Source of the DNA: Spirochaetia bacterium
GTDB taxonomy: Bacteria > Spirochaetota > Spirochaetia > UBA9216
Length of the DNA stretch: 64,000 bases
NCBI GenBank assembly: GCA_963677925.2
Contig: CAXXYH010000003.1
Span: 320,001-384,000 of the forward strand
Direction: 5' to 3'
The notes under the pieces are model-generated. The model was not told the DNA's origin. It saw only the letters and a program-made list of their open reading frames with translations, and did not search any database. Shown here piece after piece: positions 2,704 to 24,045 of the stretch. The position numbers and the translations under genes are program-made. Position 1 is the stretch's first letter. Every line of letters starts with the position of its first letter.

Positions 2704-4248
2704 TCACCAGTCTATTGGGAAATAGTCTTTTAGAAACATTCCGCACCAGTGACGTCCTGTGTTTATACCGTCAAAAAGAGGATCACAGACTCGGGCGGCG
2801 CCGTCTACTATATCCAGCGGGGGCTGAAAATCATGCAGCTCCTGCTTCTTTTTCGCCAGCTGGGCCGGATCTTCATCGGTAACCCAGCCGGTATCAACTG
2901 CATTCATATATATTCCGTGTTCAGCAAGCTCACTCGCGGATGTGTGTGTAAGCATGTTAAGAGCTGCTTTTGCCATATTTGTATGCGGATGCCTCTCACC
3001 TTTCTTAAAACGCATAAACTTGCCTTCCATGGCAGAAACATTGACTATATGTTTGCAGCCTGTGTTCTCTTTTTTCATGAGAGGCACAAGTCTGTTGCAC
3101 AGAACAAATGGTGCTACAGAGTTAATAAGCTGTAGTTCAAGCATTTCCGAGGTCTGAATCTCACCAAGCTTAAGGCGCCAGCTGTTTGTTGTTCGCAGAT
3201 CAACCTGCTGCAGGTCGACATCCAGTTTGCCTTGAGGAAAAACAGCTTCAACTTCATGATTGTCTTCATACGCATACGGGATCTGCGATAATCTAGCCGA
3301 TTCAATCATCCCGAGACCGGGAGTTCTGGCCTCCCAGGATACAGGAACAAGAGCATCATCTGAATGACTGCTGTGTGAAAATTTCTCAATCCGGTTGAGA
3401 CAGGATTCATAATCAAAAAGAAGGCTGCGGACTTTTTCAGGAAGCGCCTCCCGCGGCATCAGTTCATTATCCATCAGATGCTGGTAAAAACCGGGCGGAC
3501 GCCGGACTGTCTGGGCAGCATTGTTTATAAGTATATCCAGCCGTCCAAACCTGTCGGTAATATGAGTACAGAATAGCTCAACACTGGGGGTGTGACGCAG
3601 ATCGAGCCCGTAGACATGCAGACGATGACCCCAGTCAGCAAAATCAGCTTCTTTCGAATATCGAATTGCGGAATCCACAGGAAATCGTGTTGTGGCAACA
3701 ACCTCAGCACCGGCCCTAAGAAGCATCAACGTTGCCTGATATCCAATTTTAAGCCTGGAACCCGTAATCACAGCAACCTGGCCTCTTAGATCTGCAGTCT
3801 GAAATCTTTTATAATAGTTCAGCTCTGCACATTCCGGACACATAGCATCATAAAAGAAATGCATGCGGGTATATTCTTTTTTACAGACGTAGCAATTACG
3901 CGGAGAATTCAGAACAAGTTCTTTATCATTATCCATCTCATCACAGGTCAGCTGCTTTGGTGCAGAAAATACGAGATTCTCCCTGGCACTTCGTATTCCG
4001 GTTGCCGCGCGTGCAGCCCGTTCATCAGCTACAGTCTCCTGCCGTTTTTTTCTGGCGGCGGCCTTCTTTCTCTGTTTTAAAACGGCATGATCCGGTTTGG
4101 ACAATGCGCCTGCGGCCTTTAGAAGTTCAATCTGTGTATCTCTGGGAATAGCAACTAACTGATCTGCATTTTCAGATAGAGCTTTTAATATATTTATACA
4201 GTTATTTATTTCTTCTTCTGTGTAATTTGATTCAGTGTCTTCGTTCAT
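2704..4248 (-). CDS. Atypical SDR-family oxidoreductase with N-terminal CxxC...CxxC extension
   Basis: [11 protein letters not shown] Rossmann motif, [31 protein letters not shown]; CYVC...CPEC upstream. Confidence 0.8.
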
Positions 4249-4315: not shown

Positions 4316-4346
4316 AAAAAAGCCGGAGCAGTTCATTGCTCCGGCT
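4316..4346 (-). terminator. Intrinsic terminator of panB-folD-fhs
   Basis: agccggagca-gttcat-tgctccggct stem preceded by an A-run (U-tail on minus). Confidence 0.75.
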
Positions 4347-4375: not shown

Positions 4376-6139
4376 TTAAAACAGTCCTTTTACCCGCCCT
4401 GTCTGGGTATCAACATCAATCTGCCTGAATGCAGGATCTGACGCAGTACCCGGCATAAGCTTGATGCCTCCGGCAACAGGTACAATAAACCCGGCGCCCT
4501 GATATACAAGGATATCGCTGATAGGCAGAGTCCAGCCTTTTGGGCGGCCCTTCAGAGTCGGGTCATGTGACAACGAAAGATGAGTCTTAACCATACATGT
4601 ACCCAGACCGTTTAATGAACTGTCATTCTGTATCTTTTCCAGCTTGGCAGAAGCTTCTGCACTGTAGCTAACACCATCTGCACCATAAACCTGGGTAGCA
4701 ATCAGCTCAATTCTTTCCTTAAGAGGTGTGGAATCTTCATACAGAAATTTAAAATCAGGTTTTTCTTCACAGGCCTCGACAACTGCGTTTGCAAGTTCAA
4801 CCGCACCTTCACCGCCTTTTTCCCAGTGCTTTGATAAGGCAACCCTGGCACCGGCTTTCTTACAGGCTTCTCTGATGACCTCAATTTCCTTATCTGTATC
4901 AGTATAAAAGTGGTTTATACATACAACTGCAGGTACACCGCTCTTTCTGACAGTTGCAATATGGGCAAGAAGGTTTTCAAGTCCTTTTTCAACCAGTTCA
5001 ATATTCTCTTCTGTATATGCCTTATCGAGAGGTTTGCCCGGAACAACCTTCGGTCCTCCTCCGTGCATCTTTAAAGCCCTTACTGTACACACAATTACAG
5101 AACAGTTCGGAACAAGTCCTGAGAACCTGCATTTAAGATTCCAGAATTTCTCAAAACCGATATCTGCACCGAAACCGCTCTCTGTTACATGGTAATCACA
5201 GAGTTTAAGACCCACACGGTCAGCTATAATTGATGACTGGCCGATTGCAATATTTGCAAAAGGGCCTGCATGAACAAGGACCGGCTGGCCTTCGATAGTC
5301 TGCATAATGTTCGGGTTTATAGCCCGTGCCATCAGGGCAGTCATTGCTCCGCCTACTTCCAGATCATCAGCAGTAACAGCTTCGCCTTTCTTGTTGTAAC
5401 CGATAATCATCTTACCTATGCGTTCGCGCATATCCTTAAGATCTTTTGCAACAGCAAGTATAGCCATAATTTCTGATGAAACGGTAATCTGAAAACCGCT
5501 TTTCATCATAAATCCGTCCATCTTCCCGCCGAGTCCTATTATTATTTCCCGGAGTGCCTGGGCTGAAAAATCTATAGCCCATCCTATTGCAGGGTTTCTT
5601 GGATCTATATCGAGTCTTTTGAGATTCTTTTTTTCAAGCACATCATCGCCGTAGTTGAATTCATGCTGAATCCGGCTGGTAAGAGCAACCATAGCCAGGT
5701 TGTGTGCGTTAGTGATGGCGTCTATATCGCCGGTAAGTCCGAGACTGAACTCAGTAAGAGGTACACATTGTGCAAGTCCGCCGCCAGCGGCTGACCCCTT
5801 AATGTTGAATGTAGGTCCGCCTGAAGGCTGCCTGATGGCTCCGCAGACAGACTTCCCAATCTTACCAAGTCCTTCAACCAGTCCCATGGTTGTAGTTGTC
5901 TTTCCTTCACCGAGAGGAGTAGGATTTATTGCCGTAACTTCGATGTATTTTCCATCCGGTTTATCTTTCAGTCGCTCAAGAATAGCGTTGTAATCCAGTT
6001 TACCAAGGAAGTGACCATAAGGCAGAATCTCCATTTTATCAAGATTCAGTTCTTCAGCCAGCTGATAGACTGTCTTCATATCCTTTTCAGCTGCTTCAGC
6101 AATCTCCCAGTCCTTCATCTTAGTCGGATCAAGTTTCAT
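4376..6139 (-). CDS. fhs: Formate--tetrahydrofolate ligase
   Basis: [64 protein letters not shown] motifs. Confidence 0.97.
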
Positions 6140-6141
6140 AA

Positions 6142-7047
6142 TTATAACCTCAATGCGTATTTGAATGATTTTAAAGTATTCTTCATAAGCATTGTTATTG
6201 TCATGGGACCTACACCGCCGGGTACGGGGGTAATATATCCGGCAATCTGAGAGGCTTCTTCAAAATCAACATCACCCTTAAGAACTGCTATCTTCTTTCC
6301 GGTTTTTTCACTGATTTTTTCACCTACCCTGTTTACTCCGACATCAATAACACATGCTCCTTTTTTAATCCATTGCGGCTTAACCAGTCCCGGAACACCG
6401 GCTGCAACTATCAGGATATCTGCCCTCAGGCAGTGTTCAGCCAGGTTCTTGGTACCGGTATGCACAACTGTCACAGTAGAATTAGCCCCTGCACCTTTCT
6501 GCAGCATCATATTGGCTATAGGCTTTCCAACAATATTGGAACGCCCTACTACTACAACTTCAGCTCCTTTAGTTTCAACACCGGAACGGATAATCATCTC
6601 CTGAATTGCTGCAGGAGTACATGGCGGATATTTCACCTCATCACCGCCGATCATCAGCCGTCCGACATTTACAGGATGAAATCCATCGACATCCTTATCA
6701 GGATCAATAGCATTCAGAACTTTCTTCTCATCGATATGTTTCGGAAGAGGAAGCTGAACAAGGATACCATGGATATTTTCATCCTTATTATATTTATCAA
6801 TTAATTCAAGTAATTCAGCCTCGGTTATATTTTCAGACCTTGTGTCCTGAATTTCATTATAACCGAGACTCTGTGCTGTCTTGATCTTGAGGGTTACATA
6901 GGAGATAGAGGCCGGGTTTTCACCAATAAGAATAGTAACGAGACCCGGAACTTTTCCGTACTTCTCTTTAAGCTCTGCAGTTTCTGCCCTTAATTCAGCG
7001 AGAATCTCTTCCCGTATATCTGTTCCCTTAATCAATACAGCTGACAT
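6142..7047 (-). CDS. folD: Bifunctional methylene-THF dehydrogenase/cyclohydrolase
   Basis: [42 protein letters not shown]. Confidence 0.97.
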
Positions 7048-7048
7048 A

Positions 7049-7915
7049 TTAAAGCCCCAGTGCCTTTTTCAGTTCTTCAACGGCTTCGGCTTTCATGTTG
7101 AAACTGTGGTCGTTTGTAGGAAATTTTACATCCTTAACTTCACCGATAAATTCCTTAACAGCATTAACCTGAGGTGTATACATATCAGCATAAACCTTTA
7201 CAAACTTCGGAGTAAATCTCTTAAAGAGTCCGAGAAGGTCATGATAAACAAGAACCTGTCCTGCGCATGAAGGACCAGCTCCGATACCAACTGTTGGAAT
7301 AGTAAGCTGTTCTGTAATTATTGCAGCAAGCTGCTGGGGAATAGCTTCAAGAATGATTGCAAAAGCACCTGCGTCCTGCATTGCAAGAGCATCATCGAGC
7401 ACTGATTTTGCAGCATCAAGTGATTTACCCTGAACCTTGAAACCGCCCATTGTGGCAGCTGTCTGAGGTGTAAGTCCGATATGTGCAAAAACCGGGATTC
7501 CGGCTTTGGTTATCGCTGCAGCTGTAGGTGCAAAATCCTGACCGCCTTCAAACTTGATGGAATCGCAAAGACCATCCTTATAAAGGATACCTGCATTGGT
7601 TACAGCCTGTTCATTTGAGATATTGTATGACATGAATGGAAGGTCACCTACTACGTGAGCTCTGTTTACAGCCCTCATAACAGCCTTTGTATGCATCAGC
7701 ATTTCGTCCATAGTTACTGGAACAGTGTCCTTGTAACCAAGTTCAACCATGCCCAGTGAATCACCTACCAGGATAATGTCGATACCTGCTTCATCAACAA
7801 CCATTGCCTGTGGATAGTTATAAGCAGTGATCATTGATATCTTTTCGCCGTCGTCTTTCATCTTCTGAAGATCAGCAGCGAGCAATTTTTTTGTTGCTTC
7901 CGGATGTGAACTCAT
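7049..7915 (-). CDS. panB: 3-methyl-2-oxobutanoate hydroxymethyltransferase
   Basis: MITAYNY, ILVGDSLGMV, DLPFMSY, KFEGG, HIGLTPQ, GIGAG..GQVLVYHDLLG; RBS AGGAG. Confidence 0.95.
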   Translation of the reverse strand: MSSHPEATKKLLAADLQKMKDDGEKISMITAYNYPQAMVVDEAGIDIILVGDSLGMVELGYKDTVPVTMDEMLMHTKAVMRAVNRAHVVGDLPFMSYNISNEQAVTNAGILYKDGLCDSIKFEGGQDFAPTAAAITKAGIPVFAHIGLTPQTAATMGGFKVQGKSLDAAKSVLDDALAMQDAGAFAIILEAIPQQLAAIITEQLTIPTVGIGAGPSCAGQVLVYHDLLGLFKRFTPKFVKVYADMYTPQVNAVKEFIGEVKDVKFPTNDHSFNMKAEAVEELKKALGL

Positions 7916-8067
7916 ATTAAACTCCTAAAGTGTATAATTTAACCTATATTTACCTTGTATAATAATATAACCTATAATAGTATTTTTTAACAAGGAAAAG
8001 ATAGCGAAATTTAACTAATACTTAATTATAATGGAATTCTGAGTTCTTTTCAAACAGGAGGCATTAT

Positions 8068-9270
8068 TTGAAAATTCTTATTATCAACAGCGGTAGCACT
8101 TCAATAAAATTCCAGATATTTAAAATGGATACTGAAGAAACCATTTGCAGGGGTCTGGTTGACAGGGTTGGAAACAACAGCGTTATCAAGATTGAAACTT
8201 CGGTTTTTAAGAAGGAATTTAATATTAATGTTGAAAATCACAAACAGGGGCTAGAGACTGTATTGAATCTGCTTACATCCGATGAGACAGGCATACTAAA
8301 AGATATTTCTGAAATTGATGCTGTCGGGCACAGGCTTGTACATGGCGGAGATAAACTTACCAGGCCCATGCTGATTACTCCTGAGGTTGTTTCAGTGGTG
8401 GAAGACAATCTCAACCTTGCTCCGCTTCACAATCCTCCGGGACTTCTGGGCGTGCAGGCCATAACCTCCCTGCTTCCGGATGTTCCCCAGTGCGCAAGTT
8501 TTGATACCGCCTATTATTCCGATATGAGTCAGGCTGCCTTTTCATTCGGACTGGGCTATGAATACTATGAGAAATACGGCCTTCGGAAATTCGGATTTCA
8601 CGGAGCCTCACATAAATACATCAATCTAAGGGCTGCAGAAATGCTCGGGCTGCCTAAAGAGAAACTTCATACCGTAAGCGCACATATCGGAGGCGGTGTA
8701 TCACTTACGTCATCTATAGGATGCAGAGCTGTGGATACTTCACTAGGTTTAGGAACAGCCTGCGGTGTTCCAATGGGGACACGTGCCGGGGATGTGGATC
8801 CCGATGCAGTTTTACACCTTATAACTGAAGCAGGCTTTTCTGCAGCAGAGGTGAAGGACATAATTTATAAGAAATCCGGTCTTGCCGGAATAAGCGGAGT
8901 TTCTCCTGATTTACGTGATATTCTTAAAGCTGCAGATGAAGGACAGGAAAGAAGCGTACTTGCACTTGAGATTTTTGTACGTTCTATCAGAAAATATATA
9001 GGTAAGCTTGCCTGTACTCTAGAGGGCAGAATGGATGCACTTATTTTCACTGCAGGAATTGGTGAAAACTCAGCAGTTATAAGAGAAAAAATATGCAGCG
9101 GCCTGGAGGTTCTTGGTATAGAAATTGACCCGGAACTTAACAAAACGGCAACAGGAGTTGAAGCGGTTATAAGCAGCGGTAATTCAAAGGTTAAAGTACT
9201 TGTCATACCAACTAATGAAGAATGGATGATGGCATCAGAAACTAAAGAAGTATTAGAAAATTTAGAATAA
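8068..9270 (+). CDS. ackA: Divergent acetate/short-chain acyl kinase (ASKHA family)
   Basis: INSGSTSIK, GHRLVHGG, LAPLHNP, GFHGASH, MGTRAGDVDP, FTAGIGENS, IPTNEE; TTG start after AGGAGG; several motif substitutions. Confidence 0.85.
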   Translation: MKILIINSGSTSIKFQIFKMDTEETICRGLVDRVGNNSVIKIETSVFKKEFNINVENHKQGLETVLNLLTSDETGILKDISEIDAVGHRLVHGGDKLTRPMLITPEVVSVVEDNLNLAPLHNPPGLLGVQAITSLLPDVPQCASFDTAYYSDMSQAAFSFGLGYEYYEKYGLRKFGFHGASHKYINLRAAEMLGLPKEKLHTVSAHIGGGVSLTSSIGCRAVDTSLGLGTACGVPMGTRAGDVDPDAVLHLITEAGFSAAEVKDIIYKKSGLAGISGVSPDLRDILKAADEGQERSVLALEIFVRSIRKYIGKLACTLEGRMDALIFTAGIGENSAVIREKICSGLEVLGIEIDPELNKTATGVEAVISSGNSKVKVLVIPTNEEWMMASETKEVLENLE

Positions 9271-9283
9271 ATTTGGAGTAATA

Positions 9284-10240
9284 ATGAGCGGAAGTATATG
9301 CGATGTGCCGGGAATAAAAGTCGGGCATGCACAGGATTTAACAGGTGGTACAGGATGTACAGTTATTCTGCCGGATACAGAGGCTGTATGCGGTGTTGAT
9401 GTTGCCGGCGGAGCTCCTGGAACCAGAGAAACAGACTGCCTCAATCCGGTTAATTATATCCAGACGGTCCATGCAGTTTATCTTGGCGGGGGAAGTGCCT
9501 ACGGACTGGCCGGTGCAGACGGAGTTATGAAGTGGAGCGAAGAGAATAACAGAGGTCTTGATATCGGAATAGGACTGGTACCAATAGTTCCCGGAGCAGT
9601 CCTTTTTGATCTGCCGGTAGCCGATTATAAAGCCCGTCCGGATCAAAAGATGGGGTATGAAGCCTGTCTGGCGGCCAATTCAAATGAATCAAGAATGGGT
9701 AATATTGGCGCAGGAACAGGGGCAACCCTGGGAAAAGCCAAAGGTATTGATTTCTGCATGAAGGGCGGGCTTGGAACTGCAAGCATGAAGATAGGTGAAA
9801 TCGTTGTCGGTGCAATAGTGGCTGTAAACTGCTTTGGAGATGTCATAGACAATACTACCGGCCGGATAATTGCAGGAACCAGATCAGATAAACCCGGAGA
9901 ATTTCCGGGAACTGCAAAACTGCTGGCAGAACAGGCATCAACAGGCATCAATCCGATAAAGTCAAATACAACCATAGGAGTAATTGCTACTAACGCTAAA
10001 CTGACTAAACCTCAGGCTGCAAAAGTGGCCCAGATGGCTCATGACGGCTATGCCAGAACTATAAACCCGATACATACCATGCATGACGGAGACAGTATTT
10101 TCTGTCTTTCAAATGGAGATATAGAAGCAGATTTGACCGCAATCGGCAGTATGGCAGCTGAAGTAATGGCAGTTGCAGTCATTGAAGGCGTGAAAGCTGC
10201 AAAAACCATATTCGGAATACCGGGATTAGCAGGAGAATAA
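9284..10240 (+). CDS. P1/DmpA-family (peptidase S58) autoproteolytic amidohydrolase, ThnT/NylC-like
   Basis: VPGIKVGHA, GGAPGTRET, GGSAYGL, VPIVPGAVLFDL, GNIGAGTGAT, NTTIGVIATNA (Asn-Thr cleavage site), HDGDSIF. Confidence 0.9.
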   Translation: MSGSICDVPGIKVGHAQDLTGGTGCTVILPDTEAVCGVDVAGGAPGTRETDCLNPVNYIQTVHAVYLGGGSAYGLAGADGVMKWSEENNRGLDIGIGLVPIVPGAVLFDLPVADYKARPDQKMGYEACLAANSNESRMGNIGAGTGATLGKAKGIDFCMKGGLGTASMKIGEIVVGAIVAVNCFGDVIDNTTGRIIAGTRSDKPGEFPGTAKLLAEQASTGINPIKSNTTIGVIATNAKLTKPQAAKVAQMAHDGYARTINPIHTMHDGDSIFCLSNGDIEADLTAIGSMAAEVMAVAVIEGVKAAKTIFGIPGLAGE

Positions 10241-10241
10241 A

Positions 10242-11159
10242 ATGAAAATATCAATTATCGGTTCAGGAGCAATGGGTTCACTGTTCGGAGGAAAACTTGC
10301 AGCAGCAGGTAATGAAGTTGTTTTATATGATATAAATCTGGCTCATGTGAATGCAGTAAATGAAAACGGCTTAAGAATAGAAACCCTTGCGACAGGAGAC
10401 AGCGAATTCATAAAGGTAAAAGCTTCCGACAACCCTGAAGATGTGAAAGATTCAGACATAATGATCATCTTCGTAAAATCAACGGCAACAAAAGCCGTTG
10501 CCGAATCTTTCAAAAAACATGCTTCTGATGAAACAGTAGTAGTTACGCTTCAGAACGGAATCGGCAATGAAGATCTTATAAGAGAGGTTTTCGGCGAATC
10601 AAATACCGCCGCCGGGGTTACATCTCAGGGTGCGACATTTGCCGGCCCCGGACATATCAAACACGCCGGAAACGGCCCCACCCACCTGTGTATGTCAAAC
10701 GGCAAAAACTCAAAACTTGAGGCTTTTTCCAGAGAGCTTGCAAAAGCCGGATTTGAAATTATGCTTGAAGATGATATTGCAGGACTTGTATGGAGTAAGC
10801 TTGTTATCAATGTCGGCATAAATGCATTAACTGCTTTAACAGGGCTCAAGAACGGTGAACTGCTTGATTATGAAACAACCAGGGAATTAATGAGTGACCT
10901 GGTTAACGAAGCTGTGGCAGTTGCAAAAGCAGCAGGAATACAGCTTACCTATGATAACCCTCTTGAAACTGTTTATTCAGTTGCTGAAAAGACAGGAGCA
11001 AACAGGTCATCCATGCTTCAGGATTTTGACAGGGGCAGCCGCACGGAAATAGATTTTATAAATAATGCAATAGTAAAAAAGGGACAGGAACTTGGAATTG
11101 ATACTCCGGCTAACCGAATAATTGGAGCCCTGGTAAAAACCTATGACCTTAAAAGATAG
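10242..11159 (+). CDS. panE: 2-dehydropantoate 2-reductase
   Basis: GSGAMG, FVKS, TLQNGIG, WSKLVINVGINAL, SSMLQD, TEIDFIN. Confidence 0.93.
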   Translation: MKISIIGSGAMGSLFGGKLAAAGNEVVLYDINLAHVNAVNENGLRIETLATGDSEFIKVKASDNPEDVKDSDIMIIFVKSTATKAVAESFKKHASDETVVVTLQNGIGNEDLIREVFGESNTAAGVTSQGATFAGPGHIKHAGNGPTHLCMSNGKNSKLEAFSRELAKAGFEIMLEDDIAGLVWSKLVINVGINALTALTGLKNGELLDYETTRELMSDLVNEAVAVAKAAGIQLTYDNPLETVYSVAEKTGANRSSMLQDFDRGSRTEIDFINNAIVKKGQELGIDTPANRIIGALVKTYDLKR

Positions 11160-11160
11160 A

Positions 11161-11198
11161 GCTTCTTGCAAAACTCGGTTAGTTTTGCAAGAAGCTTT
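11161..11198 (+). terminator. Perfect 15-bp hairpin after panE
   Basis: gcttcttgcaaaact-cggtt-agttttgcaagaagc followed by ttt. Confidence 0.6.
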
Positions 11199-11345
11199 GA
11201 AGCAAAATTTTACATAATTTTGTAAATTATTATTTAATAACAAATTGTAAAATTTTCTTCACTTACATTAAGGTAACAATTTAAAAACTTTCTTAGTTTT
11301 TAAATTGCCTAGATAAATCAAACTGATTTAAATATTAAATCATCA

Positions 11346-11399
11346 TAAAAAAAACCGCAGACATTGAACTTTAGTCAGTTCGGTCTGCGGTTTTTTTAT
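11346..11399. terminator. Bidirectional intrinsic terminator
   Basis: A-run-ccgcagac...gtctgcgg-T-run just past the stop of the ABC binding-protein gene. Confidence 0.8.
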
Positions 11400-11414
11400 A
11401 AACCTGATTAAGAT

Positions 11415-12605
11415 TTACTGAGCTGTAATTTTATCAACAAGTACTTTCTCTCCGCCTTTGATTTCAAAGAGGAAGAGGGGCTTGTCTGCAGGATATCCGC
11501 CTTTATTGGTCCAGCTGTACTGAAGACCGTCAAAGTTCTGAATATCATTACAGTAGTCTCTGATTAAAGTTCTTTCTTCTGCAAGTTTTGCAGGATCACC
11601 AGTCACACCGGTTTCTTCGATTGCTCTTTTGATCATGTAAACAGCATCGTAGTAGTTGGGTGAAAGACTGAAGGGCTCTATACCGTCATGATCGTCCTTG
11701 AAACTCTGTCTGAAAGTATTCCATCTTGGAGTATCGAGACTTGGATCACTGTAGTTATAAAGCATGATACCATCGATTTTATCGCCGCCTGTTGTGTAAA
11801 GAGCAGCGTCATCAGCACTTGAGAATACAAGTATTTTACTCATATCTTCCCAGCCTCTGTTCTTGAGTTCGATGATAATTTTAGCTACTTTTTCTGCATT
11901 ACATGCAAAAATTATACCGTCAGGATTCTGTGCAAGGGCCTTAACGATAAGCGGACCAAAAGATACTGCATCTGATGGTACATCTACATCTTCAAGAATA
12001 TTTGCGCCAGCGTCCTTAACTCCCTTTACATGAGCTTTTGCCATGCCGGGCCATGCGCCGTAGTTTTCTACAAACTGAACAACGTTTTTAGCACCGGTTT
12101 TCTCTGCCCATGCAGTAATAATCGGTGCAAGCCTTTCTTCTGTAGGAGCAAACCATGAAATTGCCCATGGAAAATACTCAGCGGCATATTCGTAGGAAGT
12201 TGTAGCTGTAAAGCTGTAAAGTCCCTCATCAGCTGCGATTGGTACAGCAGCCATAATTACAGGTTCGGGTACGGGACCCATAACTACAAGAGCACTGTCA
12301 ACAAGCTTTGACATTTCAACAGTTCCCTTTTCAGGGCTCATAGCGGTATCAATACCAACAACCTTTACAGGTTTTCCGGCAATACCGCCGGCAGCATTGA
12401 TTTCTTCTGCTGCGTACTCAGCACCCCACTGCAGGTATTCACCGATACTTGCAATAGGTCCGGTAAGACAGTTAAGGAAAGGGATTTCCCATTCATCGAC
12501 AACGACCCCACCGCTTTCAGAAGCGCCTGCTTCCTGACTTCCGCCTGCATAAACGAAAGACATGGAGAGAAGCAGCAGAACTAAGACTGTTAAAATCTTT
12601 TTCAT
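11415..12605 (-). CDS. ABC transporter substrate-binding protein, Liv/HAAT (PBP1) type
   Basis: Signal peptide (..VYAGGSQE), LTGPIASIG, INAAGGIAGKPV, YDAVY; co-oriented with livGFHM. Confidence 0.9.
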   Translation of the reverse strand: MKKILTVLVLLLLSMSFVYAGGSQEAGASESGGVVVDEWEIPFLNCLTGPIASIGEYLQWGAEYAAEEINAAGGIAGKPVKVVGIDTAMSPEKGTVEMSKLVDSALVVMGPVPEPVIMAAVPIAADEGLYSFTATTSYEYAAEYFPWAISWFAPTEERLAPIITAWAEKTGAKNVVQFVENYGAWPGMAKAHVKGVKDAGANILEDVDVPSDAVSFGPLIVKALAQNPDGIIFACNAEKVAKIIIELKNRGWEDMSKILVFSSADDAALYTTGGDKIDGIMLYNYSDPSLDTPRWNTFRQSFKDDHDGIEPFSLSPNYYDAVYMIKRAIEETGVTGDPAKLAEERTLIRDYCNDIQNFDGLQYSWTNKGGYPADKPLFLFEIKGGEKVLVDKITAQ

Positions 12606-12697
12606 TTTTTCCTCCTAATATTCTAAACGCATACGCGTTTATTACAATTTATAAATATCGGATATTTTCAAATATAAAACAGTTTAAAAATATTCCG

Positions 12698-13576
12698 TTA
12701 TACCTTTTTCGGTTTTTTGAAAACATTGACAATCTTTTCAATCATCTGCCTTGTAATAACACCTTCAGGCTTTATGACAAGAACAACTATGAGAAGTATA
12801 CCATAGATTACAATATTCCAAGATTCAACAATATCCGGAAGTATCAACGGAAATCCCCATAATAGCGGGGCTGCAAGCAGGGCTCCCCACTGAGTGGTGT
12901 ACCCGCCGACAAACAGCATTGTCATACAGACACCGACAATATGGAATGTAAAATGGTTCGGTGAAATACTTCTCATAATGAAAGCATAAAGAACACCGGA
13001 CATTCCGCCGAGTGCGCTCGCCCAGGTCTGAAGAAACATACCCATCTTCTTCACATCAACCCCGAAGGATACAGCAAGCTCTCTGTCGATAAAAATTGCT
13101 GATGCTGCACGGCCAAGTCTTGAATTATCAAAACGATGTATAAGAAAACCTGTAATTATCACCATAGCGTATATGAAAATGATAAGAAATGTTCTGTTAG
13201 CCGCCGAAGTCTGTAGAATCTTGGGTATACTGAAAATACCGAGCGGACCTCCGAATGCTTCAACATTTTCAATAATTGTTTTTGTAAGATAGATAAAAGT
13301 AAAACCTACAATAACAACAGCAAAGCAGGGAGCATCACCTATAGCTATGGAAACAAGGAACCCGATTAATGCACCAAGCAATGTTCCCACTATAAAAACA
13401 ACTATAAAAGGCCAATCAAAATTGATAGCCATTAAGGCTGAAAAATATGCTGATATTGCCATATTAGCAACTGTCATAAAATGAAGCTGTCCTACCCTGT
13501 ACGGGATATAGATGGACCAGCTCATTAGTATATAGATGGCGGTTATTGCCAGAAAATAATATAAAGGTAAAGACAC
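12698..13576 (-). CDS. livM: Branched-chain amino acid-type ABC permease (LivM-like)
   Basis: Multi-TM, SRLGRAA, GGMSGVLYA, LKPEG-like C-terminal motif. Confidence 0.85.
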   Translation of the reverse strand: MSLPLYYFLAITAIYILMSWSIYIPYRVGQLHFMTVANMAISAYFSALMAINFDWPFIVVFIVGTLLGALIGFLVSIAIGDAPCFAVVIVGFTFIYLTKTIIENVEAFGGPLGIFSIPKILQTSAANRTFLIIFIYAMVIITGFLIHRFDNSRLGRAASAIFIDRELAVSFGVDVKKMGMFLQTWASALGGMSGVLYAFIMRSISPNHFTFHIVGVCMTMLFVGGYTTQWGALLAAPLLWGFPLILPDIVESWNIVIYGILLIVVLVIKPEGVITRQMIEKIVNVFKKPKKV

Positions 13577-13594
13577 AGTACTCCTCCTGACTTC

Positions 13595-14485
13595 CTATAG
13601 CTTGCTTCCGAATACGCCTTTCGGTTTAGCCAGAATAACAACAAGCATAATTATAAAAGCGATAGCGTTAGACCAGGAACCGGCTAGGTACCCCTGAATG
13701 ATAGCTTCCAGAACACCCAGAAGCAATCCGATAATCAGTCCGCCCGTCAAATTACCCAGACCGGCAATGATTGAAACAGCAAGAACCTTATGTCCTAAAG
13801 AATCACCAAGACCGGCAGATGCTGAACCAAGCAGAATAGCCATGAGAACTGCAGTCACACCGCCCAGAATACCTGTCAGTGCGTAACTTAAAAATCCGGT
13901 TTTCAACAGCGGAATACCTACCAGTTTTGCTCCGTTCGGATCTTCGGCAATAGCCCTGAATGCGCGTCCGGTTCTGGTCTTATAAAGCAGCCAGAACAGA
14001 AATGCTACAAAAAGAACTCCGACAATCAGGGTAAGAACCTGCCCTCTTGAAATACTGATAAGACCTACACTTATGAGTGCTCCCTTATCATTTCCAGTCA
14101 GTGCATCTGGAAAGGCAATAGGAAAACCCTGGTTAAAAGTGTGGGAAAGTATGTCGGTAATAATCATTCCCATCCCCATTGAAATAACCATTGTTGCATT
14201 TATATCAACACTGCCTCGTTTTTTCATAATATGCTGAAACATCGGTGCAGTAAGTGCGTTAACCGCAATCGCCGAAGCAATGCCTCCCAGAACACCGAGT
14301 GGTATATTATTACCGGTTAACCCCAGCACGACCCAGGATATATACATCGAAAAAACAATTACCACCGGAAAAGAAAAGTGAATAATCATCGCTACAAGCA
14401 GAAGCAGATTAAATCCCGTTACCAGCAGAACATAAATGCTTCCAAGCGAAAGTCCGTTAAATATTTGTGCTATTAATATTTCCAT
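13595..14485 (-). CDS. livH: Branched-chain amino acid-type ABC permease (LivH-like)
   Basis: NGLSLGSIYVL, TRTGRAFRAIAED, AGLGNLTGG, KPKGVFG. Confidence 0.88.
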   Translation of the reverse strand: MEILIAQIFNGLSLGSIYVLLVTGFNLLLLVAMIIHFSFPVVIVFSMYISWVVLGLTGNNIPLGVLGGIASAIAVNALTAPMFQHIMKKRGSVDINATMVISMGMGMIITDILSHTFNQGFPIAFPDALTGNDKGALISVGLISISRGQVLTLIVGVLFVAFLFWLLYKTRTGRAFRAIAEDPNGAKLVGIPLLKTGFLSYALTGILGGVTAVLMAILLGSASAGLGDSLGHKVLAVSIIAGLGNLTGGLIIGLLLGVLEAIIQGYLAGSWSNAIAFIIMLVVILAKPKGVFGSKL

Positions 14486-14488
14486 TCT

Positions 14489-15205
14489 CTATGCTCCAAG
14501 ATATGCTTCTTTAACTGCAGGATCATTCAACAGTTCTTCAGAAGTTCCGCTCTTGATTATATTTCCTGTTTCAAGAACATAACCGCGATGTGCAATTTTA
14601 AGAGCCTTATATACATTCTGTTCAGAAAGGAGGATTGTATACCCTTCTTTGTTCAGATTTACAAGAATCTCAAAAATATCGTTTACAATAATCGGAGCAA
14701 GCCCGATAGACGGTTCATCTACCATAATCATATCAGGTGATGACATCAGAGCTCTTGCTATAGCAAGCATCTGTCTTTCACCGCCGCTTAACGTACCGGC
14801 AACCTGATTTTTTCTGTTGCCTAGAACCGGAAAGGAATCATAGACAAGTTCAAGTTTTTTATCCGACTGAGAAAGGTTGTGGTGAGCGCCGAGAAGAAGG
14901 TTATCCAGAACAGTCATCGATGAAAAAACTCCGCGCCCTTCAGGAACCAGGAACATACCGCTTCTCACATTCTTATCTACAGATGTATTGGTAATATCCT
15001 TGCCTTTATAAGTAATTTTACCGTTCTCAGGAACATTTGCACCAAGGACAGTTTCCATTATAGTTGTTTTACCAGCCCCGTTGGCGCCTACTAAAACAAC
15101 AATCTCACCTTTCTTAAGTTCAAGATCAATATTTTTAAGCGCTTTTACATGTCCGTAATTTACAGAAAGGTTTTCAACACTCAGTATATTTTCATTCTGT
15201 GCCAA
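14489..15205 (-). CDS. livF: ABC ATP-binding protein (LivF-like)
   Basis: GANGAGKTT, LSGGERQMLAIARAL, DEPSIGLAP; probable TTG start at 15205 after GGAGG. Confidence 0.92.
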   Translation of the reverse strand: MAQNENILSVENLSVNYGHVKALKNIDLELKKGEIVVLVGANGAGKTTIMETVLGANVPENGKITYKGKDITNTSVDKNVRSGMFLVPEGRGVFSSMTVLDNLLLGAHHNLSQSDKKLELVYDSFPVLGNRKNQVAGTLSGGERQMLAIARALMSSPDMIMVDEPSIGLAPIIVNDIFEILVNLNKEGYTILLSEQNVYKALKIAHRGYVLETGNIIKSGTSEELLNDPAVKEAYLGA

Positions 15206-15953
15206 GATATGCCTCCAGTACTCTCTGGTCTTTCTGTACCTCAGAAGGTGTTCCCTCAAAAATATTGTCTCCGAAGTTAAGAACAGTGACCGTCTCAGCA
15301 ACATTCATAAGCATTTTCATATCATGACTTACAACTACTACTGTAATTCCCATTTCCTTAATTTTCTGAATAAGCTCACCGACCTGTTCAGTCTCCTTCG
15401 GGCCCATACCGGAGGCGGGTTCATCCATAAGCAGAATTTTAGGCTTGGAAACAAGAGCCCTTGCAATCTGAACAAACTGCCGTTCAGCCCATACAAGATC
15501 AGATGCCCATCTATCAGCAGATCCTGAAAGATTAAGCATTTCAAGAACCTCAAAAGCTGAATCGCGAAGTTCTTTTTCTACTTTCGACTGTCTGAACGGA
15601 ATTCTGAAAAAAGTATCTTTGATATCAGATTTATGATAGTCATAGACACCGCTCATTACATTTTCTATAACTTTAAGTGACGGAACAAGTTTCCCCTGCT
15701 GGAAGGTCCGTCTGATACCTAAATTGGAAATCTCATGCGCAGGTTTACCGGTGATCTCAATGTCATTCAGGTAGATATTACCCGCAGTCACCTCTAAAAG
15801 TCCGGTTATACAGTTAAACATAGTAGTTTTACCGGAACCGTTGGGGCCAATAATGCCATGAATACGTCCGTCCTGAATATCAAAACTTACGTCTTTCAAT
15901 GCCTTTAGACCGCCAAAGTGCTTACTTACACCCTTAATTGACAGCATCAACAT
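15192..15953 (-). CDS. livG: ABC ATP-binding protein (LivG-like)
   Basis: HFGGLKAL, GPNGSGKTT, RRTFQ, DEPASGM, EAYLG. Confidence 0.92.
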   Translation of the reverse strand: MLMLSIKGVSKHFGGLKALKDVSFDIQDGRIHGIIGPNGSGKTTMFNCITGLLEVTAGNIYLNDIEITGKPAHEISNLGIRRTFQQGKLVPSLKVIENVMSGVYDYHKSDIKDTFFRIPFRQSKVEKELRDSAFEVLEMLNLSGSADRWASDLVWAERQFVQIARALVSKPKILLMDEPASGMGPKETEQVGELIQKIKEMGITVVVVSHDMKMLMNVAETVTVLNFGDNIFEGTPSEVQKDQRVLEAYLGTE

Positions 15954-16162: not shown

Positions 16163-16633
16163 CTAATGACCCTCACCTTTTATCATTAATAAGGCATGTT
16201 CAAGAATGCCTAGAAGGTAATTTGTACAGGATGTAACAGCCTTAACCGATCCCGGCAGATTGATAATCAGTGTGTTTCCATGGAGCCCTGAATACCCCCG
16301 GCTTAGAACTGCCATCGGTGTTTCCCTGTATGAATGTATTCTTATAGCCTCCGATATACCCGGAACATCCCTGTCGCACCAGGCTGCTGAAACTTCAGGC
16401 GTAATATCTCTCGGGCCAAGACCGGTTCCGCCTGTTGTAATTATCAGATCAAAAGACTCATATTGATTAAGAGCATGAAGAATAGCTTCCATCTCATCAG
16501 CAACAATCGTACCGGAAAGCTCAATCTCCTCCTGAAATTTCTGCCTTAAAATTTCAGTTATGGCAGGACCGGACAAATCTTCGTATTCACCTCTGCTGGC
16601 TCTGTCAGATATTGTAATAACAGCTGCTTTCAA
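16163..16633 (-). CDS. mog: Molybdopterin adenylyltransferase (MogA/MoaB family)
   Basis: ITISDR, DLSGP, TTGGTGLGPRDITPE, INLPGS; TTG start at 16633 after GGAGG. Confidence 0.9.
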   Translation of the reverse strand: MKAAVITISDRASRGEYEDLSGPAITEILRQKFQEEIELSGTIVADEMEAILHALNQYESFDLIITTGGTGLGPRDITPEVSAAWCDRDVPGISEAIRIHSYRETPMAVLSRGYSGLHGNTLIINLPGSVKAVTSCTNYLLGILEHALLMIKGEGH

Positions 16634-17045
16634 CTGTAATCCTCCCGCCTTTAATAACTTTTGCAAATATTCCGCGCCTGGGCATTATACAGTCGCCTAC
16701 CTGCTCTCTGATAGCACATCCGTGATGACATTCTTTTCCGATCTGCGTAACTTCAAGTTCAGTATCACCGATAAAAAGTCTTGTCCCTACAGGAAGGCTG
16801 TATAATTCTATACCTCTGGTTGTTATATTTTCCGCAAAATCACCGAAATTGAGTTCAATACCCTTTCCACGCATAAGATCTATATCTTCATCAGCAAGAA
16901 GGGATATCTGTCTGTGCCAGTTGCCCGCATGGGCATCTCCCTCTATGCCATGTTCAGGTTTAATTTCAAAAAAATCAACCGGTACTTTTTTCTCACCTTT
17001 CTTCTTTGAGATATTCAGTGATAACAGTTCAAATTTATTTTTCAT
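16605..17045 (-). CDS. MOSC-domain protein
   Basis: GIEGDAHAG..HRQISLL, GDFAENIT, TQIGKECH..C, GDCIMPRRGIFAKV. Confidence 0.88.
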   Translation of the reverse strand: MKNKFELLSLNISKKKGEKKVPVDFFEIKPEHGIEGDAHAGNWHRQISLLADEDIDLMRGKGIELNFGDFAENITTRGIELYSLPVGTRLFIGDTELEVTQIGKECHHGCAIREQVGDCIMPRRGIFAKVIKGGRITVESSCYYNI

Positions 17046-17058
17046 ATTTCAGCCTTTT

Positions 17059-17553
17059 CTATTTTCTCTGCCACAGACCGGATTTTCCTCCGGATTTTCT
17101 AATCAATCTTATGGCGGTTATTTCCATACCCCGATCAACTGCCTTGCACATATCGTAGACCGTCAGAGCTGCTGTTGAAACCGCTGTCATTGCTTCCATC
17201 TCTATTCCGGTTTGACCGGAGGTTCTGGCTGTGGCGGTAATGTTTACCTTTCCGTATTTATTTCCGTTTTCACCCTCAGCTTCAATTAATTCAAAATCCA
17301 TATCGACACCGGAAATGAAAATATTATGACACATAGGTATAAGATCAGAAGTTTTTTTTGCACCGGTTATTCCCGCAATCTGCGCAGTTCCCAGGACATC
17401 ACCCTTTTTCAAACTGCCGTCACGGATAAGTCTCAAAGTTTCAACTTTCATATAAACTGAACCTTCCGCTACGGCCTCGCGTGCAGTCATTGCTTTTTCA
17501 GATACATCAACCATTTTAGGACGGCCGTCCTTGTTAAAATGCGTAAATTCCAA
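17059..17553 (-). CDS. moaC: Cyclic pyranopterin monophosphate synthase
   Basis: FTHFN..GRPKMVDVSEK, LIPMCH, TGIEMEAMTA, YDMCKAVD, KSGGKSG. Confidence 0.96.
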   Translation of the reverse strand: MEFTHFNKDGRPKMVDVSEKAMTAREAVAEGSVYMKVETLRLIRDGSLKKGDVLGTAQIAGITGAKKTSDLIPMCHNIFISGVDMDFELIEAEGENGNKYGKVNITATARTSGQTGIEMEAMTAVSTAALTVYDMCKAVDRGMEITAIRLIRKSGGKSGLWQRK

Positions 17554-17554
17554 A

Positions 17555-18517
17555 TCAGCCCCCTACTTCATGCATGCTGTGAATTGTTTTTTCAAAATCA
17601 GTCATTTCAAGATTATGTTCACCGGGTTTCATTCTGATTCCTTCCGCAAAAACTTCAGCCAATGTTTTTCCTTCGTCCAAAGCCTCCCGGATATCCATAC
17701 CTCTGTTTGAATGGAGACATGAAAGCAGCTTTCCCTCTGATGTGATTCGAAGCCTGTTACAATCTCCGCAGAATTTATGACTTATCGGATTTATAAAACC
17801 GAACCTTCCCTTCCCCTCGGGAAGCTGCCAGACCTCAGCAGGACTTCCCTTTTCGGTGATATCAATTTTAACCATACCGGGAACCTTATCGAAAACCGTT
17901 TTATTAGGAAGATATCGGTCTTCAGTCCAGCCTGAAGCCTCGCCTACCGGCATCAGCTCAATAAATCTTATCTCAATATCAAGATATTCTGCAAGCTTTT
18001 TGAACTCCAGAATTTCATCTTCATTAAAATCTTTGATGAGCACCGAATTTATTTTCAGAGGCGTTAACCCGGCTTTTAGCGCAGTGTCTATCCCCTTGAG
18101 AACTGAATCAAGTTTATCAAGGCGGGTTATCCATTTGAATTTCTCACGATTAAGAGAATCAAGACTGATATTTACCCGATCAAGGCCTGCATCTTTAAGC
18201 TTAAAGGCCATATCCGGAAGCAGAATTCCATTAGTTGTCAGGGTCAAAGTTTTCAAACCATCAATTTTACGAATATTCTGAATAAGTTCTATAAGCCCCT
18301 TTCTCACCAGAGGTTCACCGCCTGTAAGTCTGATTTTGTTTATTCCGCAGGAAACTGCAGCTTCTGCTATCTCAGTCAGTTCTTCAATTCTCAGAATCTT
18401 TGAGTGTTCTTTTTTTTCAATCCCGCCAGATGGCATACAGTATCGGCATCTGAGATTACATAAATCAGTTATTGACAGTCGAAGGTAATTGATATTACGG
18501 CTAAAGGTATCTAACAC
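17555..18517 (-). CDS. moaA: GTP 3',8-cyclase (radical SAM)
   Basis: CNLRCRYC, RLTGGEPL, FCGDCNRLR..CL, C-terminal GG. Confidence 0.96.
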   Translation of the reverse strand: MLDTFSRNINYLRLSITDLCNLRCRYCMPSGGIEKKEHSKILRIEELTEIAEAAVSCGINKIRLTGGEPLVRKGLIELIQNIRKIDGLKTLTLTTNGILLPDMAFKLKDAGLDRVNISLDSLNREKFKWITRLDKLDSVLKGIDTALKAGLTPLKINSVLIKDFNEDEILEFKKLAEYLDIEIRFIELMPVGEASGWTEDRYLPNKTVFDKVPGMVKIDITEKGSPAEVWQLPEGKGRFGFINPISHKFCGDCNRLRITSEGKLLSCLHSNRGMDIREALDEGKTLAEVFAEGIRMKPGEHNLEMTDFEKTIHSMHEVGG

Positions 18518-20427: not shown

Positions 20428-20436
20428 AACAGACTC

Positions 20437-21666
20437 CTAAAACCGGTAAACACGAACCGGTATACCTGAAGACAGACCTTCAGTGTCGCGGCTGATCTCA
20501 ATATAGCCGTAAGCCCGGCTTAGAGTTGTAATCATGCTTGAGCCGCCTCCAACAGGAGTCGCTTCAAAATTGTTATCTGAATTTTTCAAGAGAAAAACCG
20601 GTTTATAAGTATCACGGCCGGGAGACCCATGAATATTTTCAGTCAGGACTGCCTCAACCCAGGGTTCAACAGGAGCCAGGGCATTGCAAAGCAGATAGAA
20701 CAAATGTTTCCCGATAATTTTAAATACCATAAGAGCAGAAACCGGATGGCCCGGAAGTCCGACAAGAGGGAATCCTCCGGCGCTTGCAAGTATCGTAGGC
20801 TTTCCCGGGTTAAATGCAATTCCATGCACGAAACAGCCGGGTTCTCCGATTTTATCAAAAATTTCCATTGTAAAATCTTTATTACCGGCCGAACTTCCGC
20901 CGCTTAAAAAAACAACATCCGAGCTGGTCATTGCTTCCCTTATTGCCTTTTCCAGCAGCAATTTATCATCACTAACAACTTCGGCGCTTACCACATCAAA
21001 GCCGATTTTCTCGGCCTCAGCTCTCAAAGTATGTGAATTGATGTCTCTGATCTTTGCGGGAACAAGTACGGTATCAGAGGCTGTTATTTCATCACCGGTT
21101 GAAATTATAACAGCCGAGGGCTTTTTATAAACTTTGATATCCGTAATACCGGAAGCGGATAATACACCAATATCTGCTGAATCTATCTGCCTTCCAGCCT
21201 CAAACAGAAGTTCACCCACGCTGATATCCCTTCCGACCGGAACTACATTCATTCCCTTAACAGCAGGAACAGAAAAAGCTATTTCATCACCTATCTGTTC
21301 AGAGTATTCTATCATTACAACTGCATCTGCGCCTTCAGGCATCATTCCGCCGGTGGGGATGTAAGCGGCAGTACCTGAGCTTATTTTAAAATCCGGAGCT
21401 TTACCCATTGATACTTCACCTGCGATTTTCATAATAATTGGTATAGTCTCGGATGCCCCGGAAGTTTCAGCTGCGATTACGGCATAGCCGTCCATTGTGG
21501 ATTTTGCAAAATGCGGTACAGGATCAGCAGAGTATATATTTTCAGCGACAATTCTTCCTGAAGATTTATAAACCGCTATGTTCTCGGTTTTCCCGGGATT
21601 TGCCTTAAAATGAGTATTAATAAGTTCAAGTGCAGTATCAACTGTTACTACTTTCAACAAAGGCAT
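20437..21666 (-). CDS. moeA: Molybdopterin molybdenum/tungsten transferase
   Basis: STMDGYAV, TGGMMPEGADAV, STGDE, SGGSSAG, PGKPT, GLPGHPVS. Confidence 0.92.
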   Translation of the reverse strand: MPLLKVVTVDTALELINTHFKANPGKTENIAVYKSSGRIVAENIYSADPVPHFAKSTMDGYAVIAAETSGASETIPIIMKIAGEVSMGKAPDFKISSGTAAYIPTGGMMPEGADAVVMIEYSEQIGDEIAFSVPAVKGMNVVPVGRDISVGELLFEAGRQIDSADIGVLSASGITDIKVYKKPSAVIISTGDEITASDTVLVPAKIRDINSHTLRAEAEKIGFDVVSAEVVSDDKLLLEKAIREAMTSSDVVFLSGGSSAGNKDFTMEIFDKIGEPGCFVHGIAFNPGKPTILASAGGFPLVGLPGHPVSALMVFKIIGKHLFYLLCNALAPVEPWVEAVLTENIHGSPGRDTYKPVFLLKNSDNNFEATPVGGGSSMITTLSRAYGYIEISRDTEGLSSGIPVRVYRF

Positions 21667-22995: not shown

Positions 22996-23013
22996 CAGAT
23001 AATCCTGATTAAT

Positions 23014-23886: not shown

Positions 23887-23891
23887 TACTA

Positions 23892-24045
23892 TCTCCTTTA
23901 CAAATACGGAAGGCAGTACTGTTTCCGGTACCACCCTTTTGAACGACGTTCAAAGCAGTCTACACAAATAGCTCAGTTCTTTGATACGAAATTCATCGGC
24001 CTATATTCCATACCTATTCGGCTGCAGGAAAGAAGGCTCGGACAA
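23892..24045 (-). ncRNA. Moco/Tuco-type riboswitch (Moco RNA motif)
   Basis: Minus strand: UCCGAGC...CCU..UAUGG..GGCC...AGGGU-GGUACCGGAAACAGUACU-GCCUUCC-GUAUUUGUAAAGGAG running into the tupA RBS; matches the recalled Moco motif layout and gene context. Confidence 0.85.

Follow-up and report, generated by a model that had tools for sequence, protein, structure and literature searches.

In a 64,000-nucleotide window of a Spirochaetia genome (G000:C3:320001-384000; the host genome is 5.04 Mb in 4 contigs and 99.63% complete) we analysed a gene cluster in which the pantoate genes panB and panE stand together with folD, fhs, an amidase of the S58/P1 family, an AckA-family kinase and an ATP-binding cassette (ABC) importer. 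Judged by its gene content and by comparison across lineages, this cluster is probably catabolic and energy-yielding, acting on the pantoate moiety of pantothenate and/or pantetheine, vitamin B5 compounds that arise as breakdown products of coenzyme A (CoA) and acyl carrier protein. It would thereby represent a plausible new catabolic pathway assembled from known enzyme families. We give about an even chance to a fuller proposal, in which PanE and PanB running in reverse form the heart of an undescribed anaerobic pantoate fermentation in necromass-feeding Spirochaetota and Atribacterota that do not produce B5. According to this proposal each pantoate would yield two ATP, the first at Fhs and the second at an AckA-type kinase of a new subfamily, and the S58 amidase together with an M20 deacylase would be the missing bacterial pantetheinase and pantothenase. 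No such pathway was described in the limited literature set that we searched for missing PanC or its replacement, pantothenase, pantothenate degradation, reverse PanB, and natural substrates of ThnT and NylC.

Gene content and the proposed route

Genes in the window were called from six-frame open reading frames (ORFs) combined with Pfam and NCBIfam scans, and these scans confirmed all of the gene identities that a sequence-only reading of this DNA had assigned between 4376 and 15953. Three genes lie on the minus strand and are separated by gaps of only 1-2 bp: panB, for ketopantoate hydroxymethyltransferase (7049-7915; PF02548, 363 bits; TIGR00222, 312 bits against a cut-off of 207), folD, for methylene-tetrahydrofolate (THF) dehydrogenase/cyclohydrolase (6142-7047; NF010765, 558 bits against 501), and fhs, for formate-tetrahydrofolate ligase (4376-6139; FTHFS, 777 bits; NF010032, 1101 bits against 938). 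The short gaps, and a terminator-like hairpin directly 3′ of the fhs stop codon (4321-4346, minus strand; a 10-pair stem with 7 G-C pairs and a T-run, matched to a consensus only), agree with the earlier suggestion that these three genes are co-transcribed, which we likewise infer from the layout. Across a 152-bp spacer a divergent plus-strand unit encodes the AckA-family carboxylate kinase (8068-9270; PF00871, 430 bits), the S58/P1 amidase (Peptidase_S58, 9284-10240; PF03576, 166 bits) and PanE, the 2-dehydropantoate 2-reductase (10242-11159; TIGR00745, 291 bits against 141). Thus PanB, PanE, FolD and Fhs all score above curated equivalog or subfamily cut-offs of NCBIfam.

Convergent with the kinase-S58-panE unit, a Liv-type ABC operon runs from 15953 to 11415 on the minus strand. 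Its five genes encode a periplasmic binding protein (11415-12605; Peripla_BP_6, 152 bits), two permeases that are kept alongside the binding protein in other copies (12698-13576 and 13595-14485; BPD_transp_2), and two ATPases recognized by family scans, one LivF-like (14489-15304) and one LivG-like (15192-15953). The ORFs of the two ATPases overlap, and the true start of the LivF-like gene is probably near 15190, since its family match begins at residue 38. The sequence-only reading had ended the cluster at this operon; the genes that it listed were right, but it missed a gene for a Ptb-like phosphate acyltransferase at 24167-25081 (plus strand; PF01515, 167 bits). In G318, G316, G320, G315 and the spirochaetal locus L023 an orthologue of this gene (61-70% identity) directly adjoins the ABC operon, and another is present at L205. 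Here and in G312 the ABC operon and ptb are split by an 8-kb block of molybdenum-cofactor and transport genes (16163-23934), an insertion found in this genus only.

For each step of the reverse route from uptake to isobutyrate, a putative gene is present either in the host cluster or in its counterparts elsewhere. The binding protein and ABC importer would take up an amide, from which the cytoplasmic S58 enzyme would release pantoate, helped in most other genomes by an M20 deacylase; the families of both hydrolases are read from gene content and their substrates are proposed. In the likeliest division of labour S58 would act like ThnT and cleave the beta-alanyl-cysteamine bond, leaving pantoyl-beta-alanine to be cut by M20. 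The presence of two amidases in the conserved core fits a substrate with two amide bonds, that is, pantetheine. The host cluster has S58 only, and its substrate may be pantothenate, or S58 may cut both bonds. PanE, reversed to serve as a pantoate dehydrogenase, would then convert pantoate to 2-dehydropantoate, and PanB, also reversed, would convert 2-dehydropantoate and THF to 2-ketoisovalerate and methylene-THF (CH2-THF). FolD would take CH2-THF to 10-formyl-THF, and Fhs would release formate with a gain of one ATP. For the other product, a VorB-type oxidoreductase encoded elsewhere in the genome would convert ketoisovalerate to isobutyryl-CoA, the Ptb-like transferase would exchange CoA for phosphate, and the AckA-like kinase, acting on isobutyryl phosphate or on another short acyl phosphate like it, would form isobutyrate with a gain of a second ATP. 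Reducing equivalents would leave as H2 or an equivalent and beta-alanine would pass to the class-III aminotransferase found in some clusters; the host cluster itself has no gene for either of these last two functions.

The S58 protein appears to be a cytoplasmic N-terminal-nucleophile amidase of the ThnT/nylonase clade, closest to enzymes that cut non-peptide amides. Its best solved relatives are the nylon-6,6 hydrolase 9cxr (233 bits, E 3e-68), ThnT (177-179 bits, E 4e-51) and NylC (about 90 bits); its nucleophile motif N228/T229 aligns with that of the solved relatives and is invariant in 17 homologues, and no signal peptide was predicted in it. ThnT is described as a pantetheine-cleaving amidase in a portion of PMC6097109. 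Based on homology to ThnT and on genomic context, we propose that S58 is a candidate for activity on pantetheine and/or pantothenate. A second S58 homologue in the host genome (G000:C4:924151-925127) is interrupted by in-frame stops, with one TGA in one piece and three TGA plus one TAA in the other, and is probably a pseudogene.

The kinase resembles AckA proper in its catalytic residues and departs from it in its pocket. When aligned to Methanosarcina acetate kinase 1G99, in which the catalytic positions are R91, H123, D148, H180, R241 and E384, it keeps the catalytic residues, and these are conserved in its orthologues. By contrast, the acetate pocket motif of AckA, G-F-T-P-L-E-G with Pro232, is replaced by L-G-L-G-T-A-C-G. 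The pattern 'G.GT..G' stands in place of 'TPLEG' in 8/8 cluster orthologues as compared to none of three full-length paralogues from the same genome. It also occurs in 103 of the 120 best database homologues, with kinases of this type found in records named Spirochaetales, Cloacimonetes, Fermentibacter, Synergistaceae and Latescibacteria. The kinase therefore seems to belong to a distinct, broad and uncharacterised AckA subfamily of anaerobes with a remodelled pocket. Outside the order of the host it is missing from most clusters, and it occurs in only 1 of 80 metagenome loci.

The ABC system has all five components of a LIV-I importer, namely a binding protein, two permeases and two ATPases, but its binding protein does not appear to be a canonical LivJ or LivK. 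Against the LivJ-type family NF011933 it scores 52 bits, where the cut-off is 477, and its matches in the PDB are weak, LivJ-like and at most 55 bits. A signal peptide is predicted for this protein, which shares 57-84% identity with its orthologues in Spirochaetota and 49-63% with those in Atribacterota.

Conservation of the cluster and additional genes in other copies

The co-location of these genes, on which the sequence-only reading had built its proposal, recurs in other genomes. The GTDB order of the host consists of 11 genomes in one family, and in tblastn searches with the window proteins the kinase, S58 and panE genes (ackL-S58-panE) were found together in nine of its ten S58-bearing genomes, the kinase being missing from G314. 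In this order folD directly follows panB at 8/9 cluster-type panB loci, PanB is 76-100% identical, and fhs lies within the 20-kb stretch around the cluster in six genomes (G312, G320, G315, G313, G316 and G311); fhs is also present at loci L023, L200, L201, L220 and L221. Similarly, panE adjoins S58 in the order, at loci L017, L020, L021, L023, L025 and L037, in Atribacterota and in metagenome contigs.

An alignment search of species-representative genomes seeded with S58 returned 80 loci, nine of which have panE and/or panB in their flanks, while a tenth has the orthologous ABC system. These ten linked loci, from Spirochaetales, Atribacterota and Geosporobacter, are the closer relatives of the window's enzyme (nine at 53-71% identity and L037 at 50%). 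The remaining 70, mostly at 54% identity or less, showed no link to pan genes or the ABC system. Within a sample of 81 Atribacterota genomes, 10 of 28 PanB loci have the arrangement S58-panE-panB, or panE-panB where the flank is short. As an independent seed, seven cluster binding proteins were aligned and used to scan metagenome contigs, giving 80 loci, of which 41 carry at least one of S58, M20, PanE and PanB. When only the 14 long loci were considered (at least 8 kb upstream and at least 4 kb downstream), PanB was found in 11, and S58, PanE and M20 in 10 each. The conserved core is the ABC importer, S58, usually an M20 deacylase of the ArgE/DapE type, PanE and PanB. The arrangement is not a product of chance, for it recurs across the order, other Spirochaetota, Atribacterota and metagenome contigs.

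Other copies of the cluster contain additional genes. For example, in the Atribacterota locus L020 one strand encodes the subunits of a 2-oxoacid:ferredoxin oxidoreductase, the ABC system, M20, S58, PanE, PanB, a class-III aminotransferase and a Nudix hydrolase. The alpha subunit of this oxidoreductase matches the NCBIfam model 'VorB, 3-methyl-2-oxobutanoate dehydrogenase' with 546 bits against a cut-off of 399, and VorB-type oxidoreductases lie inside the cluster in L020, L023, L205 and L271. Likewise, L023 combines fhs, folD, a VorB-type oxidoreductase, panB, S58, a PduL-type phosphotransacylase, panE, M20, the ABC system, a channel of the formate/nitrite-transporter (FNT) family and a Ptb-like transferase. 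PduL also occurs in 6 metagenome loci, the FNT formate channel in L200, Nudix hydrolases in 7 Atribacterota-type clusters, and a HAD hydrolase in the cluster of one Spirochaetia metagenome-assembled genome (MAG; L021). The M20 proteins of the clusters fall above the cut-off of the ArgE/DapE deacylase subfamily, and their best solved relative is a DapE-like enzyme; within the order, M20 orthologues are present in G315 and G313, together with the kinase. The host genome carries a VorB operon at C4:2088259-2090601 that is 57-64% identical to the Atribacterota operon, and had no match to PduL at E 1e-5 and 50% coverage. The fermentative chain put forward by the sequence-only reading is thus well supported in silico, given that VorB, Ptb/PduL, the formate channel, the aminotransferase and M20 occur in independent copies and that the carriers lack PanC.

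The fhs and folD genes of the cluster are an extra pair in the host genome, which has a second pair at C3:1595382-1597884 (fhs at 1596229-1597884, 45% identity; folD, 35% identity). The second pair shares its operon (G000:C3:1593841-1597926) with genes for an FTCD_C (cyclodeaminase-like) protein and a channel of the formate/nitrite family. A weak PanB-family gene (C3:1606491-1607378) lies 9 kb away, beside an SDR gene. We considered this locus as a parallel PanB-type cluster and set it aside as unrelated, since two two-component systems separate the weak PanB-like gene from the fhs-folD pair. An M20 gene of a second type near fhs (in G311, in G316 and at C3:312091-313332 in the host; about 90% conserved) was similarly dismissed as a pathway member, being a case of ordinary synteny.

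Missing synthesis genes and the direction of the pathway

The observation in the sequence-only reading that panC and panD are absent from the window proved to be an understatement, as both are absent from the whole genome. Searches of the whole genome gave no match to PanC (PF02569; the control search was positive in 9/14 reference genomes), to PanD (PF02261; other routes to beta-alanine were not searched), to archaeal PPS (PF02006; control positive in 4 archaea) or to CoaB/DFP (PF04127; control positive in 14/14 reference genomes). A separate panBCD set had been considered possible elsewhere in the genome; PanC and PanD are lacking there, and the weak PanB-family gene described above scores 135 bits. 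A homologue of CoaX, the type III pantothenate kinase, was found in the host, which was the only genome of the order searched for it. Because PanC, PanD, PPS and CoaB are all absent, PanB and PanE cannot feed known CoA synthesis in this organism.

The same pattern extends across the order, in which PanB was found in 9/11 genomes and S58 in 10/11, while PanC and CoaB were found in none of the 11. Ten further genomes in which S58 is accompanied by pan genes or by the ABC system (one of them, G001, being the same assembly as G318) all lacked PanC. CoaB was searched in five of these ten, and was present in the Atribacterota genome and Geosporobacter and absent from three spirochaetal MAGs. As a baseline for the phylum, a 301-genome sample contained PanB in 193 genomes and PanC in 204, and by our own cross-tabulation of the two lists PanC was present in 178 of the 193 PanB-positive genomes. 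PanB without PanC is therefore unusual in the phylum, and here the next pathway step, CoaB, has been lost too. In the Atribacterota sample PanC was found in only one of 81 genomes, while PanB was found in 20, eight of which have two copies. G318 and these eight Atribacterota genomes each have one PanB gene in the cluster and one elsewhere, which fits two separate roles. With CoaB missing throughout the order, these organisms probably need pantetheine, or else have a CoaB substitute of another kind.

With respect to direction, the dedicated importer, two hydrolases, ferredoxin oxidoreductase, formate channel and extra fhs/folD pair together exceed what a vitamin-level biosynthetic flux would call for. 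Several points nevertheless count against a catabolic role. Direction is not fixed by gene content, because every enzyme involved is reversible, and the equilibrium of PanE favours pantoate. It would also be surprising to find a high-capacity pathway dedicated to pantothenate and pantetheine, given how scarce these compounds are in nature in free form. In the host genome the VorB operon lies about 1.8 Mb away on another contig, and there is no close M20 orthologue (at most 32% identity). Three of the 14 long binding-protein loci have no core gene. Finally, an S58 of 69% identity is present in an uncultured Vibrio (L014:10001-18454) that has no pan genes at this locus, and no link to pan genes is seen for S58 homologues of 46-54% identity, such as those of a Brachyspira-like genus and of Clostridium; on account of these contexts, the specificity of S58 for pantoyl amides is only putative. 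Beside the Vibrio gene lie genes for an enzyme with the amidase signature, an ABC system of the family-5 peptide type and a LysR regulator, so that the amidase looks to have spread horizontally into a different setting of amide use.

We consider it unlikely, if worth weighing, that the cluster degrades some other imported amide or amino acid, such as a branched-chain amino acid or small peptide, by way of ketoisovalerate, VorB, Ptb and the kinase, with PanB and PanE acting on a related hydroxy or keto acid or having a side function. The transporter does come from a branched-chain amino-acid family, S58 has relatives in non-pan contexts, and the PanE family includes other 2-hydroxyacid dehydrogenases. 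In addition, VorB, Ptb and kinase would make up the valine-to-isobutyrate route of free-living spirochaetes reportedly described by Harwood and Canale-Parola. However, PanB and PanE score above equivalog or subfamily cut-offs, the binding protein has no partners more constant than these two (11/14 and 10/14 of the long loci, respectively) and is itself far from LivJ, and the amidase, PanB, PanE, FolD and Fhs would all be superfluous for fermenting valine. That the genes are merely housekeeping neighbours brought together by chance is hardly credible: fhs, folD, ackA and Liv-type transporters are indeed common, but the arrangement is conserved across two phyla and on independently seeded metagenome contigs, and the fhs, folD and ackA genes found here are extra paralogues.

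Two further alternatives run the pathway towards synthesis. The sequence-only reading had itself raised a PanC-independent synthesis of pantothenate or pantetheine, in which the kinase would activate pantoate or pantothenate as an acyl phosphate and S58 would act as an amide-forming acyltransferase, with one-carbon units drawn from formate through Fhs/FolD and beta-alanine supplied by the ABC system. This is quite improbable. It would account for PanB and PanE in the absence of PanC and PanD and for a remodelled kinase pocket that is more polar, and S58 shares a fold family with acyltransferases; moreover, since other PanC-less Spirochaetota keep panB-coaC-coaB, PanC substitutes probably exist in the phylum. 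Yet with CoaB absent from 11/11 genomes of the order, pantothenate could not be carried further by known chemistry, most clusters outside the order have no kinase, and the core has two hydrolases and an importer instead. VorB, Ptb/PduL, the formate channel and the second fhs/folD pair go far beyond vitamin-level flux, and PanC-less lineages with a biosynthetic-looking panB have no S58 (0/3 in family f3 and 0/17 in family f16). The replacement of PanC by kinase plus amidase thus finds no support in these comparisons. We regard as very improbable an anabolic use without CoA synthesis, in which isobutyrate and formate would yield ketoisovalerate or valine plus pantoate, for instance for cross-feeding, through the kinase, Ptb, reductive VorB, Fhs, FolD, PanB and PanE. 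Every enzyme is reversible, and reductive carboxylation of isobutyrate is known in anaerobes. Pantoate has also been proposed as a shared vitamer in part of PMC6593275. But this use would leave the two core hydrolases, a high-affinity importer, the aminotransferase and the Nudix hydrolase without a role, and the carriers have no PanC with which to use pantoate. Catabolism of the pantoate part of B5 compounds remains the explanation that we favour.

Some PanC-less genomes have other arrangements of panB. In G240 and G040 (family f3, of the same class) panB, coaC and coaB form an operon with a gene for a 118-aa protein (L161:9446-11922, and L162), an arrangement suggesting that these spirochaetes reach CoA without PanC. 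A protein of about 415-427 aa is encoded directly downstream of a second type of panB at L159:8337-9584(-), L160:8220-9503(-), L128:136-1419(-), L186:1066-2325(+) and L192:1089-2336(+), in PanC-less Spirochaetota (G090, G144, G318) and Atribacterota (G367, G324), with copies 55-73% identical across both phyla. It has no Pfam family, no sequence match in the PDB and no Atlas match, and it is absent from the window's genome. Its structural model (predicted local distance difference test score, pLDDT, 66) is beta/alpha-barrel-like, with weak matches to barrel-like structures, none at E <= 0.001. We examined it as a possible PanC substitute, and it is also a candidate for a further step of pantoate metabolism. 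In Atribacterota (L181:680-3327 and similar loci) the gene before the second-type panB encodes an IclR-family regulator (134 bits to 1mkm), and the one after it an unrelated 316-aa protein that is not PanE.

Comparison with known systems and neighbouring features

The cluster shares with canonical pantothenate biosynthesis (PanB, PanE, PanD and PanC) a bona fide PanB and PanE and the series ketoisovalerate, dehydropantoate and pantoate. Unlike that pathway, it lies in a genome and an order lacking PanC and CoaB, in a genome also lacking PanD, and it comes with an importer, amidases and ATP-yielding enzymes of one-carbon and acyl-phosphate metabolism; the direction that we propose is the reverse. 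The archaeal pantoate kinase/PPS route differs as well, the genome having no match to PPS. A pantothenate degradation route is reportedly known from aerobic Pseudomonas through the work of Goodhue and Snell, Nurmikko, and Airas, passing through pantothenase, pantoate 4-dehydrogenase and dimethylmalate. That route, too, first hydrolyses pantothenate, giving pantoate and beta-alanine, and it also ends at 2-ketoisovalerate, but it oxidises C4 of pantoate, which is lost as CO2, whereas in the cluster C4 would leave as CH2-THF, with ATP made at Fhs.

The S58 enzyme is a clear homologue of ThnT, which acts with ThnR and ThnH in the truncation of CoA for thienamycin. ThnR is a Nudix enzyme and ThnH a HAD enzyme, families that also appear in Atribacterota clusters and in L021, respectively. 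The window's own cluster, however, has no Nudix or HAD gene. The Thn pathway is moreover biosynthetic and gives cysteamine to the antibiotic, whereas the cluster has no carbapenem genes and would process the pantoyl part further. More broadly, S58 appears to share the family fold and Asn-Thr motif of the S58/P1 hydrolases DmpA, ThnT and NylC. With NylC-type and newer nylon hydrolases (9cxr, 3axg) it has in common the N-terminal Thr nucleophile motif, 9cxr being the best solved relative; nylon is not a natural substrate, though, and the context of the cluster points to a natural amide of the pantoyl or beta-alanyl type. The one-carbon module is of the formate-THF ligase/FolD type, with full-length equivalog matches for both enzymes. 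As in purine- and glycine-fermenting clostridia, FolD and Fhs would run towards formate with substrate-level formation of ATP. In the cluster, by contrast, the one-carbon unit would come from the hydroxymethyl group of dehydropantoate via PanB, a source that we did not find reported in the literature searched.

If the proposal is true, there would be an anaerobic route of B5 and CoA turnover, where the sole known route is aerobic and genetically uncharacterised, and there would be gene candidates for the orphan enzyme pantothenase. The protein identity of pantothenase was reported as unknown in 2023 in a passage of PMC10393543. The proposal would also mean that a large clade of 'P1 family peptidases', at present investigated as nylon hydrolases, has a natural role, and it would add a new source of THF-bound one-carbon units for substrate-level phosphorylation. 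Likewise, panB plus panE in a genome would not equate to B5 prototrophy, which affects predictions of auxotrophy for Spirochaetota, Atribacterota and metagenome bins. Among the variants given in the relevant part of a gut-microbiome reconstruction, there is none with PanB and PanE but without PanC (PMC6593275).

The spacer between panB and the kinase gene (7916-8067) has the features of a divergent promoter region, with promoter-like hexamers on both strands and two TAMTATAACCYA boxes (7935-7946 and 7963-7974). The TAMTATAACCYA block in this spacer is kept in 5/5 aligned genomes of the order, and both of its matches in the window fall within the spacer; yet at least two window matches were also obtained in 32/100 shuffles. 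The pair may be an operator, although it is not statistically distinctive within the window. No operator common to the spacer and the region upstream of the ABC operon was found, the conserved box being confined to the panB/kinase spacer. A long hairpin lies between the convergent panE and ABC units (11160-11196; 16-pair stem, consensus match only).

On the other side of fhs, the cluster is flanked by a CHASE2-adenylate/guanylate cyclase gene (27-2669) and a gene for a 514-aa protein with two SDR-like halves (2704-4248), neither of which is syntenic with the cluster outside the genus. We considered whether the double-SDR gene belongs to the cluster, where it might for instance encode a malonate-semialdehyde reductase, and rejected this in view of the lack of synteny and of the terminator-like hairpin that lies between it and fhs. 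The molybdenum-cofactor block at 16163-23934 encodes MoaA, MoaC, a MOSC protein, two MoeA proteins, a MogA-like protein, ABC ATPase-type proteins and a PBP_like_2 binding protein.

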